Assembly (NCBI GenBank): GCA_034437215.1
Contig: DAOTVC010000076.1
Location: 27,439-91,438, forward strand
From: Anaerolineae bacterium
GTDB lineage: Bacteria; Chloroflexota; Anaerolineae; B4-G1; SLSP01
Length of the DNA: 64,000 bases
Direction of reading: 5' to 3'
Shown here: positions 9,255-48,991 of the stretch, in pieces
How positions within the stretch are numbered: position 1 is the first letter of the stretch
Layout: each line of letters begins with the position of its first letter
Notes under the pieces: generated by a model
Told to the model about the DNA's origin: nothing
Seen by the model: only the letters and a program-made list of their open reading frames with translations
Database searches by the model: none
Program-made: the position numbers and the translations under genes

Positions 9255-9319
9255 TGTTGGATCCTTTGTTGGGGTATGGGACGTGCTTCTCGAACTAACA
9301 ATCCGACTCTTCCGGCACT

Positions 9320-19038: not shown

Positions 19039-19995
19039 CTAGTGACCCTTCTCCTGACTGACCGCCTTCTCGGCGGCACTCTCTGCAATCTCCTCTCGCG
19101 ACAGATCCTGCACAATGAGCAGGGGCTTGGTCCCGTAGGCGATAAAGTTCAGAGCGATACTGCCGTAGGGCCAGCGCGCCTCACCGGAGTAGCCGTGAGC
19201 ACTCAGCAGGACCATGTCGATATCCTCCTTCTCCACCAGGTCGTGCAGGGCAGCGGCAGGATTCTCGCTGACCAGAAGACGGGTTTCCGCCTCCGAGGCG
19301 AGCCGAGTTTGCAGATCCTTGAGGTACTCCTTACCGTGCTCGTGGTTCAGCTCGGTGAGCCGGTCGACGAGTTCCTGCTCCTGCTCCTTGAGCGGTGCGC
19401 GACGCGGTACCTCGGGCCGGGCGACGACGTGGGCCAGGACGATGCGGCAGTCGTGGTAGTTGGCGATGGAGCGCGCAAAGGGCAGCAGATTCTCGGCCCG
19501 GCGTGAGCCGTCCAGCGGGACGAGGACGCGATGGTACTCCAACGCTGTTAGGTCTTGGGGCACGGATTGGTAGGACCGGACGATCAGGGTGGGCATGTAG
19601 ACGCGCAGGATGACCTTCTGCACCACGCTGTTGATGTTCCACTCGCTCAGACCACTCTGCCCGTGACTGCTCATGACCAGCAGGTCGACGTTCTTTTCGC
19701 GCGTATAAGCGACGATGCGTTTCGCTGCGCGCCCCTCCAAGAGGACCTTCTTCACGTTCAGGTCCAGGTCCTTCAGGCGGGCACTGACCTCGTCGAGGTA
19801 GGATTCGGCCTCCGCCTTGCGCATCTGCCACCCCAGCGGATCGACCGCCTGGGAGCGATCCTCCCCCTGAGGCTGCTCCACGACTCGCATGACGATGATC
19901 TGTGAGCCGAAAGGCCGGGCCAGCGCGACGACGTGGGGCAACACACTCTCGGCGAGAGACGAACCGTCAAGTGGAACGAGTATCTGTTCGAACAT
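19039..19995 (-). CDS. Universal stress protein with tandem UspA domains.
   Basis: Two Usp-like halves, each ending in a (L/M)SAHG(Y/Q)SG-type motif. AAAGGAAG RBS. 4 nt upstream of the cgs start. Confidence 0.85.
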   Translation of the reverse strand: MFEQILVPLDGSSLAESVLPHVVALARPFGSQIIVMRVVEQPQGEDRSQAVDPLGWQMRKAEAESYLDEVSARLKDLDLNVKKVLLEGRAAKRIVAYTREKNVDLLVMSSHGQSGLSEWNINSVVQKVILRVYMPTLIVRSYQSVPQDLTALEYHRVLVPLDGSRRAENLLPFARSIANYHDCRIVLAHVVARPEVPRRAPLKEQEQELVDRLTELNHEHGKEYLKDLQTRLASEAETRLLVSENPAAALHDLVEKEDIDMVLLSAHGYSGEARWPYGSIALNFIAYGTKPLLIVQDLSREEIAESAAEKAVSQEKGH

Positions 19996-20105
19996 AGTTT
20001 TTGCTTCCTTTCAACCGCGACCGTCCGACAAAGCGCTCTTAAAAGTATAATTTTCCGAGTGATGGTGGGTGATCTACTTAAAGGGTGCTTGCGTCACTGT
20101 AATTT

Positions 20106-20202
20106 GCGAGCCTCAAACGCCCAGGAGGTACTCCGCCCCCACGCTCTCGGTTACGCCAGCACGAAGTTATACTTCTGCGAGCCCTGAGGGCGTCGGAGGC
20201 TC
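20106..20202 (+). repeat. Two tandem copies of a ~28-nt imperfect-hairpin motif (GCGAGCC-N11-12-GGAGG(C)T(A)C); a third copy is at 31643-31670.
   Basis: Exact 14-mer gcgagcctcaaacg is shared between 20106-20119 and 31643-31656; flanks are also similar. All copies are intergenic. Confidence 0.6.
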
Positions 20203-20242
20203 TTGAACCCGATCTCTGGTGCCCCCCCATCCCTCTGGTCGG

Positions 20243-20581
20243 CTACTCTTCCTCGACGAGACGGACGACGGTGGCGTCCTCGTTGGTGCGGAAGACGTAC
20301 TCCTCGCCCTGCACCTCGACCGTCACCTGGTAACCGGGGGTGATGACCTGGGCGCAGACTTCACCCTCCTCGGCGAGTCCCAGGCAGGCGTCGGGCCAGT
20401 CCTCCTGCTCGTAGGAGACGATCTCCACAGCATCCTCGGGTATCTCCAGCTCCTCGCTTAACTGACCACGAAGCTGCTGAATAGGAGCAGGTAAGGGGGC
20501 CTCCTGCCGATTCTGACAGCCGACCAGGAGCAGGGACAACATCAGAGCAATCAACATCCAGATCCCTTTACGTACTAACAT
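20243..20581 (-). CDS. Small lipoprotein (112 aa), hypothetical.
   Basis: Lipobox LLVGCQ. Strong AAGGAGGAT RBS. The 15-bp iteron array abuts its RBS. Confidence 0.6.
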   Translation of the reverse strand: MLVRKGIWMLIALMLSLLLVGCQNRQEAPLPAPIQQLRGQLSEELEIPEDAVEIVSYEQEDWPDACLGLAEEGEVCAQVITPGYQVTVEVQGEEYVFRTNEDATVVRLVEEE

Positions 20582-20597
20582 GGTGGTTATCCTCCTT

Positions 20598-20672
20598 GAA
20601 CTGACGGACAGGGAACTAACGGACAGGGAACTAACAGACAGGGAACTAACAGACAGGGAACTAACAGACAGG
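20598..20672. repeat. 15-bp tandem repeat array, 5 units (GAACTAAC(A/G)GACAGG), immediately upstream of the RBS of the lipoprotein gene.
   Basis: Read directly; units at 20598, 20613, 20628, 20643, 20658. The first unit is degenerate. Confidence 0.95.
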
Positions 20673-20692
20673 TGCCCACTCTCTTACAGGGG

Positions 20693-21910
20693 TCAAGCCC
20701 CGTACTTCCCCAGCCGTCGCGCGTGGGCGAGGGCCAGGGGCATGATCTCGAAGGCCGGGAAGCGCGGTCCCAGACTGCCGGTGACGCACGCTCGCTCGCC
20801 GAACTGCTCCACTCTATCAGGCCGGCAGAACTCCGACCAGAGAAGCACCGGCACGGGGTGCCAGCTGTGATACTTCATCTTGGCGGGCGTCGAGTGATCC
20901 CCTGTCACCACAATCACGTCGGGATGGAGGTCGACGAGGCGGGGTACGAGCGCGTCCGTCTCCTCGATGAGGCTGACTCGGCGGTCGAAGTCGCCGTCCT
21001 CCCCGGCGCTGTCGATCCGCTTCACGTGGACGAAGAAGAAATCGTAGTCGTTCCACTTCTCCTCTAAAAGGTCGAACTCCTCCTCCACGGTGTGGCTGAC
21101 GGGCAGGGCGTCCATTCCGATGAGCTTGGAGACGCCCCGGTACATGGGGTACATGGCGATGGCGGCCGCTTGCAGCCCGAAGACCTCCTGCATGGAGGGC
21201 CATTCGGGCTGCTGGGAGAAGCCGCGCAGCAGTACCATGTTGGCGGGCTTCTCATCGCGCAGGATCTCCCGGACCTGGTCGACGAAGTCGCGCACGATCC
21301 GAGCCGTCTTCTTCGCCTCCGGTGTGGGCAGGGTGGCCTCCGGGCGCACCGGCTCCTCTCCCACCTCCAGGGGATCGGTCTCCGTCACGGCGCTCGAGAG
21401 CTCCGCGCCCCGCAGCACCAGCAGGAAGCGGTACTCCTTGACGGGCTCCATGAAGACCTCCACCTCGGAGATGTCGAGATTACTGCAGACGAGCTCCTCC
21501 AGCTCCTTGTTCTTCTCGGTGGAGATGCGGCCCGCGCGCCGATCGACGACGACGCCCTGCTCGTTAACCGTGCAGAAGTTCCCGCGAGCCGCCACGTCCT
21601 GGGGCTGGAGATCGAAGTCGATGCCCAGCGCCGAGAGGACGCCCCGGCCCACCTGGTAGGTGACGGGGTCGTAGCCGAAGATGCCCAGGTGACCGGGCCC
21701 GCTGCCGGGGGTGACCCCCGTACGCACCGGCTGGTGGAGGCCGCAGATGCCTTCCGCCGCCAGCCGGTCCAGGTTGGGGGTGTGGGCCGCCTCGAGGGCC
21801 GTCTTGCCACCCCTTTCCATGGGTAATCCCCCCAGCCCGTCCATGACCAGCATCACGATCTTGGTGTCTCTGTTTCTCTCGACGAGAGATTTGATGAAGT
21901 TAAGGTCCAT
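20693..21910 (-). CDS. apgM: 2,3-bisphosphoglycerate-independent phosphoglycerate mutase, archaeal type (ApgM).
   Basis: 405 aa collinear with ApgM family proteins (MDLNFIKSL...VTGDHSTP...). AGGAAAGGAGAT RBS. Confidence 0.9.
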   Translation of the reverse strand: MDLNFIKSLVERNRDTKIVMLVMDGLGGLPMERGGKTALEAAHTPNLDRLAAEGICGLHQPVRTGVTPGSGPGHLGIFGYDPVTYQVGRGVLSALGIDFDLQPQDVAARGNFCTVNEQGVVVDRRAGRISTEKNKELEELVCSNLDISEVEVFMEPVKEYRFLLVLRGAELSSAVTETDPLEVGEEPVRPEATLPTPEAKKTARIVRDFVDQVREILRDEKPANMVLLRGFSQQPEWPSMQEVFGLQAAAIAMYPMYRGVSKLIGMDALPVSHTVEEEFDLLEEKWNDYDFFFVHVKRIDSAGEDGDFDRRVSLIEETDALVPRLVDLHPDVIVVTGDHSTPAKMKYHSWHPVPVLLWSEFCRPDRVEQFGERACVTGSLGPRFPAFEIMPLALAHARRLGKYGA

Positions 21911-21947
21911 GCTTGATCTCCTTTCCTGACATGTAGCTTTGTTAACT

Positions 21948-22811
21948 CTACCCACCCTTGATGGAGCCCGCGAGAATACCACGGACGAAGAAGCGCTGCA
22001 GGGAGAAGAAGACGACGAGGGGCAGGGCCATGGAGACGACGGCGGCGGCGGGCAGGAGGTAGGCTTGGGCCCCGAGCGAGTTCACGAGGTTGGCGACGCG
22101 GACGGTGAGCGGGGCGACGCGGGGTGTGCCCCCCAGGTAGATGAGGGCGACGAGCAGGTCGTTCCAGACCCAGAGGAACTGAAAGATGGCCAGGGCCGCC
22201 AGGGAGGGGACGGAGAGGGGGAGGGCCAAGCGTGTGAAGGCGGTGAAGAAGGAGGCGCCGTCGAGATAGGCGGACTCGAAGAGCTCGCTGGGGAGGGAGC
22301 CGAAGAAGTTGCGCAGCAGGTAGACGGCGAAGGGAAGGCCGTAGCCCGTGTGGGCCAGCCAGATCCCCAGGAAGGTCCCGTTGAGGCCCAAGGAGGTGTA
22401 GATGGAGTAGACGGGGACGAAGGTCATCTGCAAGGGGACCACGAGGAGGCCCACGACGAGGGAGAAGAGCAGCCGGCGTCCCGGAAAATCCATCCAGGCG
22501 AAAGCGTAGGCCGCGAAGGCCGCGACGAGGATGGGGATGACGGTGGCCGGGACGGAGATGAAGAGACTGTTGCGGAAGGCGTGGGCCAAACCCTGGGCCT
22601 CCAGCACCGTCTCGTAGTTCTCCAGCGTCCACGTGGTGATGTTGAAGGGATGGGCGAAGATGTTCCACCAGCCGCTCGACCGGATGGCCTGCGGGGGGCG
22701 GAAGGAGTTGAGCAAGACGCCCATGGAGGGCAACATCCAGATAAGGGCAATGGTGATGACTACGACGTGGAGGGGAATTCTACCCAGGAGCTTGCGCATT
22801 TTGTCACTCAT
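21948..22811 (-). CDS. Carbohydrate ABC transporter permease (MalG/UgpE-like).
   Basis: 6-TM permease with an EAA-like loop. Overlaps the upstream permease by 4 nt. Confidence 0.85.
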   Translation of the reverse strand: MSDKMRKLLGRIPLHVVVITIALIWMLPSMGVLLNSFRPPQAIRSSGWWNIFAHPFNITTWTLENYETVLEAQGLAHAFRNSLFISVPATVIPILVAAFAAYAFAWMDFPGRRLLFSLVVGLLVVPLQMTFVPVYSIYTSLGLNGTFLGIWLAHTGYGLPFAVYLLRNFFGSLPSELFESAYLDGASFFTAFTRLALPLSVPSLAALAIFQFLWVWNDLLVALIYLGGTPRVAPLTVRVANLVNSLGAQAYLLPAAAVVSMALPLVVFFSLQRFFVRGILAGSIKGG

Positions 22812-23821: not shown

Positions 23822-25273
23822 TTAGTAGTTTTCCTCGGCGACGCTCTCGATATTCTGTAGAATGCTGTCCAACTGATCGGGGTTCTCCACGTACTCGAGG
23901 ATGCCGGACCAGAAGGCGTCGTTGACGGCGGACGGCATGAGATCCGAGGCGTCGAAGCGTACGACATCGGCCTCGACGAGAACCTCTGCGGCCTGCTGCG
24001 TCAGTTGATCGGGATAGATCTCCGGAGCGACGTTCCGGTTGGTGGCGATGAAGCCGCCGCGCTCGGCCCAGATGCTCTGGGCGTCATCGGTCGCCAGCCA
24101 GCGCATCAGACAGCGGGCTGCCGGCTCGTCGTTGAAGAGCCCGAAGAGGTCGCCCGCCACGAGGGCCGGTGTGCCGTACTGCTCGTCGATGGGCGGGAAG
24201 GCGAAGTAGTCGAAGTCTTCGATGGGCTGGGCGTCAGGGAACTGGTCCTGGATGAAGCTCTGGATGAAGATGGCCTGGCGGTGCATGTAGCAGCCCGGCG
24301 GTTCCTGTAACATGGGATAGACAGACTCACCGAAGCCGGTAGCCAGCACAGCGGTCGTGCCCCCTTGGACCATATCGCCGTCGGTGGCGACCTGTCCGAA
24401 GATCTCCCAGGCATTGCGTACGGCTTCGTCGGTCCAGGGGATCTCGTGTTGCCACCACTGGTCGTAGACCTCAGGTCCCGCAGTGCGCAACATGATGTCC
24501 TCGATCCAGTCGGTGCCGGGCCAGCCGCTCGCGGCGCCGCTCTCCAGCCCCAGGCACCAGGGCGCGTTGCCGTCGTCGATGATGGTCTGTGAGAGCTCCA
24601 TCATCTCGTCCCAGCTCTCCTCGGGGATCTCGTACCCGGCCTCCTCAAAATTAGGAGGGCTGTACCAGACGAGGCTTTTGATCGCGGCCTTCGTGAAGAT
24701 ACCGTAGAGGCCGCCGTCGAAGGTCGCCAGGTCGATCCAGGTGTCGGCGTAGTCCTCCTGCAGCATCTCCATGTCCATGAAGGTGCTCAGATCCACCAGA
24801 TAGCCCTCATCGGCGTACTGGCGCAGCTGACCGGGGCCGGGCAGACCGGCGATGTCGGGCGGGTTGCCGCCCTCGACGCGCGTGGTCAGCACGGCGTTCA
24901 GGTCACGGGTGCCCTCGTAATCCATCATGGCGCCCGTGGCTTCCTCCCAGGGCGCGACCATGGCCTCGAAACTTTCCAGCTCGTCGCCGCCCCAGACGGC
25001 GAGAACGTTGACCGTCTCGCCGGAGATGTCCTCCTCACAACTGAAGGCCATCTCCTCTTCCATCTCCTCCGTCGGCATGGCCTCTTCCGTCTCCTCGGCC
25101 ATCTCCTCCGTCGGTGTAGGCTCTTCGGTCATCTCTTCTGTGGGCTCTTCTGTCATCTCTTCTGTGGGCTCTTCGGTCATCTGCTCGGTGGGCTCCTCGC
25201 CGTTACAGGCGCTCAGGAGCATGCTCGCCACCAGCAGGACGCTGACGAGAACCCAAAGTGTGCGTTTGAACAT
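23822..25273 (-). CDS. ABC transporter extracellular solute-binding protein (family 1, sugar) with lipoprotein signal and acidic EEPTEEMT repeat linker.
   Basis: Lipobox LLSACNG followed by (EEPTEEMT)n low-complexity linker; SBP_bac_1-like body. Confidence 0.85.
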   Translation of the reverse strand: MFKRTLWVLVSVLLVASMLLSACNGEEPTEQMTEEPTEEMTEEPTEEMTEEPTPTEEMAEETEEAMPTEEMEEEMAFSCEEDISGETVNVLAVWGGDELESFEAMVAPWEEATGAMMDYEGTRDLNAVLTTRVEGGNPPDIAGLPGPGQLRQYADEGYLVDLSTFMDMEMLQEDYADTWIDLATFDGGLYGIFTKAAIKSLVWYSPPNFEEAGYEIPEESWDEMMELSQTIIDDGNAPWCLGLESGAASGWPGTDWIEDIMLRTAGPEVYDQWWQHEIPWTDEAVRNAWEIFGQVATDGDMVQGGTTAVLATGFGESVYPMLQEPPGCYMHRQAIFIQSFIQDQFPDAQPIEDFDYFAFPPIDEQYGTPALVAGDLFGLFNDEPAARCLMRWLATDDAQSIWAERGGFIATNRNVAPEIYPDQLTQQAAEVLVEADVVRFDASDLMPSAVNDAFWSGILEYVENPDQLDSILQNIESVAEENY

Positions 25274-31476: not shown

Positions 31477-31834
31477 GCGCGCGTATAAAGAATAGCTTCC
31501 CGCGCGATGGCGAGGTGGCTTATTCAGGGACGCTTAGGAACGCGAATTAAACAACTCGAGCAAAAGCAAACTGAAAGCGCTCCCGAAAGTCACCTATAAT
31601 GCCCAAGTTATTTCGCTTTCAGTCCTTACCTCATTGAAACTGGCGAGCCTCAAACGGGTGTGGGAGGCTTCTGCCTTACGACTGCGATTGGGCCATCGGG
31701 AAAGCGCTTCTTTACAGACCCTAACTCCACCCAGCGTGATCCTGCTTCGTTGCCCCTAGGCTGTCCTCGGATAGAATAGGGGAACAACGTTGTATTCACA
31801 GTAGACTCACTATGATCCTCTTAGGAGCGCTTAT

Positions 31835-32448: not shown

Positions 32449-32691
32449 ACTATTCTTGACTTCCCTGAAAGAAGGGGGATAAACCACAAAGGACGCAGAG
32501 GTCGCAAAGAAAACTTAATATTTCTGAAGAGGGCACGGAGATTTTTTTAAATTGGACTTCATAAAATCAGGCAAAAGAGCGCTTTTTATAAAGATATTTC
32601 ACTATCTCCTTGGTTTTCTCAGTGTTCTCCGTGTTGGAAGGAGTTTTTTCAGGGCAGTCATTCTTGAGTCGGGATCGAAAGGAGGCAGATC

Positions 32692-48453: not shown

Positions 48454-48581
48454 GGGGCAAGATAGCTCTCTACCGCTCCGCCACCGCTTCTCACCTGCAG
48501 AGCGCGCAGTTTCTAAGGCGTCGCTTTAATTTTTTCCACTTCCGGGTATACTGCAGGCAGAGCCCCTTTCGGGGCGTCTTT

Positions 48582-48671
48582 TGTTAGGCAGGCAGGTGTT
48601 AGACAGGCAGGGGTTAGGCAGGCAGGTGTTAGACAGGCAGGTGTTAGACAGGCAGGTGTTAGATAAGCAGG
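48582..48671. repeat. 15-bp tandem repeat array, 6 units ((T/G)GTTAG(A/G)CAGGCAGG), ending 5 nt before the start codon of the MazG-like gene.
   Basis: Units at 48582, 48597, 48612, 48627, 48642, 48657; the last unit (tgttagataagcagg) supplies the AGGA RBS. Confidence 0.95.
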
Positions 48672-48676
48672 ATAGG

Positions 48677-48991
48677 ATGACGCTTGACGAGTTGACCGAC
48701 GCGATGAACCGCTTCGTCGAGGCCATGGGCTGGTACCGGCCCGATTCCCCCTTCGTGCAGAGCCCGCGCAACATCGCCATCTCCCTGACGTTGGAGGCCG
48801 GCGAGGTGCTCGAGCACTTCCAGTGGGGGGAGGAGGCCGTTCCGGAGGATCTGGCAGAGGAGCTGGCCGACGTGGCCCTCTACCTGCTTCAGCTGGCCTA
48901 CCTAACCGGCGTGGATCTGGAGGAGGCCATCGTCGACAAGCTGGCGGTGAACTACGAACGCTTTGGGCCGCAGGAAGACACGGCGGCGTGA
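48677..48991 (+). CDS. MazG-like all-alpha nucleoside triphosphate pyrophosphohydrolase (small, single domain).
   Basis: EAGEVLEHF and EELADVALYLLQLA EExxE-type motifs; 104 aa. The alternative TTG start at 48581 would translate the repeats as (QVLDR)n. Confidence 0.7.
   Translation: MTLDELTDAMNRFVEAMGWYRPDSPFVQSPRNIAISLTLEAGEVLEHFQWGEEAVPEDLAEELADVALYLLQLAYLTGVDLEEAIVDKLAVNYERFGPQEDTAA

Follow-up and report, generated by a model that had tools for sequence, protein, structure and literature searches.

A five-unit, 15-nt tandem array ahead of a small lipoprotein gene in an Anaerolineae genome: probably a recent minisatellite of local origin

Gene context of the array

We analysed a 64-kb stretch of DNA from an Anaerolineae bacterium (hereafter the window, to which all coordinates refer unless a contig is named), where five tandem 15-nt units (array 1) lie between apgM and a small lipoprotein gene. 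The genes flanking array 1 are all encoded on the minus strand, so that the relevant reading is the reverse complement. The features of the locus, in the order of that strand, are the following:

20693..21982, minus strand: apgM, cofactor-independent phosphoglycerate mutase (longest ORF; Pfam and NCBIfam)
20673..20692, minus strand: unique spacer CCCCTGTAAGAGAGTGGGCA (sense), 20 nt, from the apgM stop codon to array 1; diverged from the sister species
20598..20672, minus strand: array 1, five contiguous 15-nt units (Tandem Repeats Finder, pattern search; also in contigs L001 and L002)
20589..20597, minus strand: Shine-Dalgarno AAGGAGGAT, abutting array 1, 7 nt before the ATG (20581)
20243..20581, minus strand: lipoprotein gene, 112 aa, with a signal peptide and an LLVGC lipobox

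The apgM ORF matched the Pfam PhosphMutase/Metalloenzyme domain and the NCBIfam equivalog PRK04135 (589 bits). Its stop codon occupies positions 20695-20693, while the protein is 405 aa long in the genome-bin annotation, which places the start near 21910. The lipoprotein begins with MLVRKGIWMLIALMLSLLLVGC, lipobox included, and no Pfam or NCBIfam family was found for its 112 aa. Homologues were detected only in Chloroflexota/Anaerolineae genome bins and in metagenomes, and the 112-aa sequence itself is on record from a genome bin of an Anaerolineales bacterium (Chloroflexota). The gene context proposed in an earlier, sequence-only reading of this DNA, that is, an array downstream of apgM and upstream of the ribosome-binding site (RBS) of a small lipoprotein gene, was thus confirmed.

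Other repeats were observed in an ABC-transporter substrate-binding lipoprotein gene of the window (23822-25273, minus strand), whose 5' part carries overlapping tandem repeats of 12, 24 and 39 nt at 25048-25199. They were also present in contig L001, and their product is probably a linker of acidic, low-complexity sequence that follows the lipobox.

Array sequence and independent assemblies

Tandem Repeats Finder reported array 1 at 20598-20672 with a period of 15, 5.0 copies, 96% matches and a score of 129. A mismatch-tolerant pattern search with GAACTAACAGACAGG agreed with the five 15-bp units previously described, which carried 2, 1, 0, 0 and 0 mismatches; elsewhere in the 64-kb window this pattern had a single extra match, with 3 mismatches, where 0.81 were expected by chance. 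On the sense (minus) strand the order is CCTGTCTGTTAGTTC three times, followed by CCTGTCCGTTAGTTC and finally by the gene-proximal CCTGTCCGTCAGTTC. Variant units are therefore restricted to the two at the gene-proximal edge: the earlier description of one degenerate unit, the first, was right that degenerate units exist, but there are two of them and both are those nearest the RBS.

Two further details of that description had to be corrected. Array 1 does not fill the 111-nt gap between apgM and the lipoprotein gene (20582-20692), since it occupies 75 of the 111 nt and the 20-nt unique spacer at 20673-20692 remains, and it does not end 1 nt from the Shine-Dalgarno, which it abuts with zero bases between. 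The degenerate 9-mer noted at 9292 was present and, as had been said of it, lies within chance expectation. The units are contiguous, with no CRISPR-type unique spacers between them, and no start codon opens a frame across the array, which is non-coding DNA between the apgM stop and the RBS.

Array 1 was also recovered from this Anaerolineales (Chloroflexota) population in two independent assemblies. Contig L001 (GCA_046541445.1) was 99.96% identical to the window and contained five units, unit 4 differing at one position (T/C), and the Logan contig L002 begins within the array. Short-read assemblers usually break at repeats, as L002 does here. Array 1 is genuine and not an assembly artefact. 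The unit count (5 in the window and 5 in L001, with L002 starting mid-array) comes from two to three assemblies only; no copy-number variation was seen within the species, both full assemblies having five units. Over 20.3 kb, the window and L001 showed about 8 differences, one of them inside the 75 bp of array 1, which would be consistent with faster turnover of the repeat.

A single related segment in a sister species

The closest other lipoprotein (P0002, 79% amino-acid identity) was encoded on five contigs (L003-L007, including GCA_034432195.1) that share 88-89% nucleotide identity with the window in the flanking coding DNA. This sister species keeps the gene order apgM, lipoprotein, Usp and GH94 (on L003, the longest contig), and its apgM-lipoprotein gap, of 48 nt, lacks the array. 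We found there one related segment (...GTTAGCTAGTTC) directly 5' of the same AAGGAGG, in an RBS, AAGGAGGGT, that is the conserved counterpart of AAGGAGGAT. Compared with the unit of array 1, the sister segment (...GGGTAGTTAGCTAGTTC) matches at 9 of 15 positions, with the 3' 7 nt identical. More distant lipoprotein orthologues were found in other contexts with unrelated leaders, and a scan of JGI metagenomes for the conserved RBS flank returned only the known sister contig.

Because the sister species has a single segment and no array, we conclude that array 1 arose in place after the two species split, and that it was generated locally from the 15 nt just upstream of the Shine-Dalgarno. A recent tandem expansion is also what would be expected from the array itself, because its units are near-identical (96%) and vary only at the gene-proximal edge.

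On the other side of the lipoprotein gene, the spacer from its stop to the Usp start (20037-20243, minus strand) measured 247 nt in the window, whereas its counterpart on L003 of the sister species (2105-2178) has 74 nt. The ~170 nt by which it is longer are non-repetitive and partly of low GC (47-48% over 19950-20099), and they include a TATACT that resembles the -10 element upstream of a MazG-like gene elsewhere in the window. The lipoprotein gene thus has lineage-specific insertions on either side.

A second array upstream of a MazG-like gene

The sequence-only reading had pointed to a second array with the same unit length (15), and this was borne out (array 2). Its features are the following:

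48547..48575, plus strand: elements upstream of array 2 that relatives share, a -10-like TATACT (48547-48552) and a hairpin with a T-tract, GCCCCTTTCGGGGC (48562-48575)
48582..48671, plus strand: array 2, in the MazG-like gene's 5' leader, six units of 15 nt, TGTTAGACAGGCAGG (Tandem Repeats Finder)
48677..48991, plus strand: gene of a MazG-like nucleotide pyrophosphohydrolase, 104 aa, downstream of array 2

The last unit of array 2 reaches into the RBS and stops 5 nt short of the ATG. In the sister species (L013 and L014, 89% nucleotide identity; MazG-like protein 93% identical) we found exactly one copy, TGTTAGATAGGCAGG, between the conserved hairpin and the RBS, followed by the same ATAGGATG as in the window. 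Copy number thus differs between close relatives at both loci, with five units versus one related segment for array 1 and six units versus one for array 2. Because each array has a single-copy counterpart at its own sister locus, the two expanded locally and in parallel, and they do not belong to one dispersed family. Array 2 is therefore probably an independent product, at another gene, of the same local process that gave rise to array 1.

Further observations were made on the MazG-like leader. Its succession of TATACT, GC-rich hairpin, U-tract and RBS is kept in three species (window 48547-48581; L013 738-777; L015 2946-2983); the hairpin scores as a terminator and could instead be a 5' stem-loop or an attenuator of the transcript. 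An LDRQV frame runs open through array 2 (48581-48676) and in frame with the MazG-like gene; its codons include a TTG (48581) and, in most units, a GTG. MazG-like isoforms extended at the N terminus by pentapeptide repeats are formally possible, and the start could be misplaced by a gene caller. An exact-protein look-up around array 2 (MazG-like proteins of 104 aa and 136 aa, DUF4032 and ProS) returned no record.

Similarity between the two arrays

The units of both arrays share AGACAGG on the plus strand and TGTTAG/CTAACA in inverted orientation, CTAACA being the reverse complement of TGTTAG, exactly as had been noted earlier. The proposed relatedness of the two units held in part. The combination of the shared 7-mer and 6-mer was found in 0.4% of random window pairs (p ~0.004) and in 0.1% of pairs taken from gene-upstream regions (p ~0.001), both values being post hoc, and in this respect the sub-motifs exceed chance; but the best circular identity of the units, 9 of 15, is ordinary, as it was reached by 22% of random 15-mer pairs of the window, and the arrays have independent origins in place. 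By inspection, we judged part of the similarity to be a low-complexity CAGR sub-repeat. The opposite orientation of the arrays relative to their downstream genes, also proposed earlier, applies to AGACAGG, which is sense at one gene and antisense at the other, but not to TGTTAG, which is on the sense strand at both. Because the two motifs disagree, no consistent orientation can be assigned.

The sense RNAs of the two arrays are moreover complementary in register: CCUGUCUGUU of array 1 pairs with GACAGGCAGG of array 2, giving 10 bp per 15-nt unit, and over five units the cofold has an interaction energy of -55 kcal/mol, a value reached by 3% of unit-shuffled array 1 controls. We record this complementarity as an unexplained oddity and not as evidence of function. 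A reading in which the two leaders, (CCUGUCUGUU..)n and (GACAGGCAGG..)n, pair in trans and regulate each other's mRNAs, or in which the terminator protein Rho loads onto array 1, an untranslated and unstructured RNA with more C than G that separates apgM from the lipoprotein gene, seems very improbable to us. The pairing itself, the identical period and the position of both arrays beside an RBS would fit mutual regulation, but the test was post hoc (p ~0.03), and pyrimidine-rich and purine-rich repeats pair readily if G-U pairing is permitted (the null had a mean of -23 and a best value of -69 kcal/mol). Moreover, there are no compensatory changes at the variant positions, and the single-copy sister sequences are not complementary.

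Search for a wider repeat family

Within the 64-kb window, neither unit had dispersed copies beyond chance, and none was found upstream of the other ~50 genes. Outside the window, the dimer of array 1 had no match among 241 million JGI metagenome records, and a comparison of the array with 72,556 plasmids and with viral contigs returned nothing similar. Three TGTTAG motifs at 15-bp spacing occurred in at least 119 unrelated arrays of all phyla in the contigs of the genome collection; among the matches listed, none fits either unit at more than 11 of 15 positions, 6 of which are fixed by the pattern. Because this pattern is commonplace in unrelated arrays, TGTTAG at a 15-bp period is no family marker.

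A few other repeats were noted. Intergenic arrays are present on other Chloroflexota contigs as well: another Anaerolineae genome bin (L048 7080-7215) has a nine-copy array of 15 bp, ATCCTAACATTCCGT, which ends ~30 nt upstream of the GGAGG RBS of a putative secreted protein, and a more distant relative of the lipoprotein locus (L009 4423-4646) has a ten-copy array of 22 bp. Short intergenic elements of low GC (e.g. CTTCCCTGAAAGAAGG...AAAGGACGCAGAGGTCGCAAAG...AACTTAAT) recur with 83-86% identity at different loci of this genome and of the sister species (window 32459-32529 and 31532-31724; L013 553-625; L003 32-128; L004 1367-1560) and look like small dispersed repeats of MITE or REP type. The L013 element is part of an additional stretch of ~240 nt that separates the pepA terminator from the MazG promoter. 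From its coordinates, the NCBI contig L001 was calculated to end near window positions 32547 and 1990, the former just past the 32459-32529 element.

Replication, transcription and coding

In the sequence-only reading the array had been called an iteron array. Plasmid iterons, such as those of the pPS10, R6K, F and P1 origins, are typically 17-22 bp long and helically phased; a rep gene, an AT-rich unwinding region and DnaA boxes lie next to them, and they are conserved with the replicon. Array 1 resembles them in form only, as a block of short direct repeats. Its neighbours are chromosomal housekeeping genes (ABC transporter, apgM, Usp, GH94 enzyme, ribosomal proteins, ProS); we found no rep or dnaA gene, nor any rep-like ORF in a rough ORF list of the window. 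The nearest TTATCCACA-like DnaA box (at most 1 mismatch) is more than 10 kb away, and the number of such boxes in the window does not exceed chance expectation. An AT-rich unwinding element is absent, as GC never falls below 46% in 100-bp windows, and the cumulative GC skew climbs steadily over the whole window without changing sign. The contiguous 15-bp units span 1.4 helical turns, which leaves them out of phase, with successive sites on different faces of the helix. Finally, there is no plasmid match, and the sister species lacks the array despite having the same gene order. The iteron label was consequently dropped, as every testable feature that defines iterons (initiator gene, unwinding region, DnaA boxes, helical phasing and conservation) is missing here, and we consider true iterons of a plasmid or chromosomal replication origin extremely improbable.

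We found neither sigma-70-type promoter hexamers nor an intrinsic terminator within array 1 or beside it, and an internal promoter was ruled out for lack of hexamer matches. It seems improbable, too, that the repeats act as a DNA operator, binding a transcription factor or a nucleoid protein that controls an internal lipoprotein promoter in an iteron-like manner without replication. Regular direct repeats are common as regulator binding sites, and the AGACAGG 7-mer is on the plus strand of both arrays, but no promoter-like hexamers are present in or near array 1, the sister species has no array, and there is no adjacent regulator gene. In addition, the 15-bp period sets successive sites ~154 degrees apart around the helix, whereas known cooperative direct-repeat operators have spacings of 10-11 or 21-22 bp.

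Coding readings of the array were likewise rejected. On the sense strand, an open LSVSS frame continues in the reading frame of the lipoprotein gene, but after an in-frame TAA none of the start codons ATG, GTG and TTG occurs in it. The plus-strand ORF with five ELTDR repeats (20580-20870) is antisense to apgM. A plus-strand G-quadruplex built on the GGG at the unit junctions is weak by inspection, as its loops would be 12 nt.

RNA structure and a possible role in translation

The sense RNA of array 1 is pyrimidine at 11 of 15 positions and folds worse than all of 200 shuffles (200/200; z = +2.2). The energy predicted to be needed to open the region from the Shine-Dalgarno to the ATG was 6.5-6.8 kcal/mol with 0, 2, 3, 4 or 5 units and 4.9 kcal/mol with 1 unit. 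Since this opening energy is flat, copy number should not gate the RBS through structure. A switch that sequesters the RBS was ruled out by the flat opening energy, together with an array RNA less structured than its shuffles. Rfam covariance models gave no match at an E-value of 1 or below over 20500-20760, and over the whole window at the gathering threshold they matched only a tRNA.

Ribosomal protein S1 prefers pyrimidine-rich, unstructured RNA. The units of the leader may be a cis-acting RNA element that binds S1, a cold-shock protein or a lineage-specific regulator, or that forms a ribosome standby platform, so that copy number would set the translation of the lipoprotein gene, and array 2 likewise that of the MazG-like gene. 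We regard this as unlikely. In its favour, both arrays end at or within the RBS, UGUUAG is present in every unit of both sense transcripts, array 1 RNA is pyrimidine-rich and predicted to be unstructured, as given above, and the shared sub-motifs exceed chance. There is also a precedent, as direct repeats close to start codons have been proposed as sites of a post-transcriptional regulator (PMC4679880). Against such an element, the sister species has one copy at both loci, the units of the two arrays differ at at least 6 of 15 positions, and no more copies lie upstream of the other genes of the window. The predicted accessibility of the RBS is insensitive to copy number, and no candidate binding factor was identified.

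Discussion

We consider array 1 to be probably a recent tandem amplification of 15 nt of an intercistronic leader, with little or no function. According to this scenario, the 15 nt immediately 5' of the lipoprotein Shine-Dalgarno would have been amplified in place, from one to five tandem copies, after the split from the sister species; replication slippage or unequal recombination is the likeliest mechanism. The array probably forms part of the transcribed apgM-lipoprotein intercistronic leader, to which it would add ~60 nt of pyrimidine-rich, unstructured, non-coding RNA without a dedicated trans-acting partner. Its effect on expression may be nil, or it may be a modest shift in lipoprotein translation, for instance if the coupling to apgM were loosened or if ribosomes had a longer single-stranded stretch to land on. 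We infer both the slippage mechanism and the co-transcription with apgM from the arrangement described above, and likewise the near-neutrality of the array, which leans on the modelled RNA.

Locally arising non-coding satellites are documented in prokaryotes, and Chloroflexus aurantiacus (Chloroflexi) heads the bacterial table with 76 satellites, or 14.4 per Mb, in a survey where only 18 bacterial species exceed 4 satellites per Mb (PMC6749651). Array 1 fits this class of locally arising, species-specific non-coding satellites or minisatellites. As in intergenic minisatellites and VNTR, its short units are near-identical and arranged head-to-tail in a compact intergenic spacer, with degenerate units at the edge; it is species-specific and of local origin, and it is absent or single-copy in the nearest relative. 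It differs from them in having five units in both full assemblies, and in that two arrays of the same unit length abut RBSs within 64 kb.

Other families of short repeats were compared with array 1. Direct repeats of the TAACTGA heptamer precede start codons in marine Beggiatoaceae, Cyanobacteria and Bacteroidetes (MacGregor 2015; PMC4679880); the unit is a fixed 7-mer, with ~170 sets per genome, and usually replaces the canonical RBS. Like array 1, these are short and mostly intergenic direct repeats within a few nt of the start, with a predicted unstructured RNA and a proposed role in translation (PMC4679880). In array 1, on the contrary, the units have 15 nt, differ from those of the other array and lie upstream of a strong Shine-Dalgarno, with no further copies in 64 kb. 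The heptamer is not the unit of array 1, and the nearest resemblance to it is a TCAGTTC in the last unit, in reverse orientation.

Mycobacterial interspersed repetitive units (MIRU), reportedly described by Supply et al. in 1997, have units of 46-101 bp with a common sequence, dispersed over ~40 loci, and carry small ORFs which overlap the neighbouring stop and start codons. They share with array 1 the position of tandem repeats in the intercistronic spacers of operons, the orientation relative to the genes and a unit length that keeps the frame open into the downstream gene; array 1, unlike MIRU, has no start codon and no dispersed copies in 64 kb. In sum, array 1 belongs with none of the iterons, CRISPR arrays, TAACTGA repeats, MIRU or cyanobacterial STRR (short tandemly repeated repetitive) heptamers.

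A purely random slippage does not predict some of what we found, that is, two expansions in 64 kb with the same unit length, both abutting an RBS, with sub-motifs shared beyond chance. The coincidence extends to the mutual complementarity of the two partly similar arrays. It is conceivable, although we find it improbable, that the arrays are not independent accidents and that a lineage-specific process or selection amplifies 15 nt upstream of the Shine-Dalgarno. The pyrimidine-rich leader of array 1 and the purine-rich leader of array 2, which share UGUUAG and are complementary, could then be bound by a common factor, or pair as mRNAs, and so couple the translation of unlinked genes. Such a system would be similar to the network proposed for TAACTGA, but with 15-nt units.

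With recent local amplification as the preferred reading, array 1 would represent a clean and datable birth of a minisatellite in a bacterial intercistronic leader, the sister species having one copy and this genome five. It also indicates that "iteron-like" repeat blocks in genome bins should be compared with close relatives before a function is assigned to them. Finally, if this lineage repeatedly expands 15 nt upstream of its RBSs, this may reveal an unrecognised mutational bias or a tunable layer of translation in Chloroflexota, a phylum with, to our knowledge, almost no experimental genetics.
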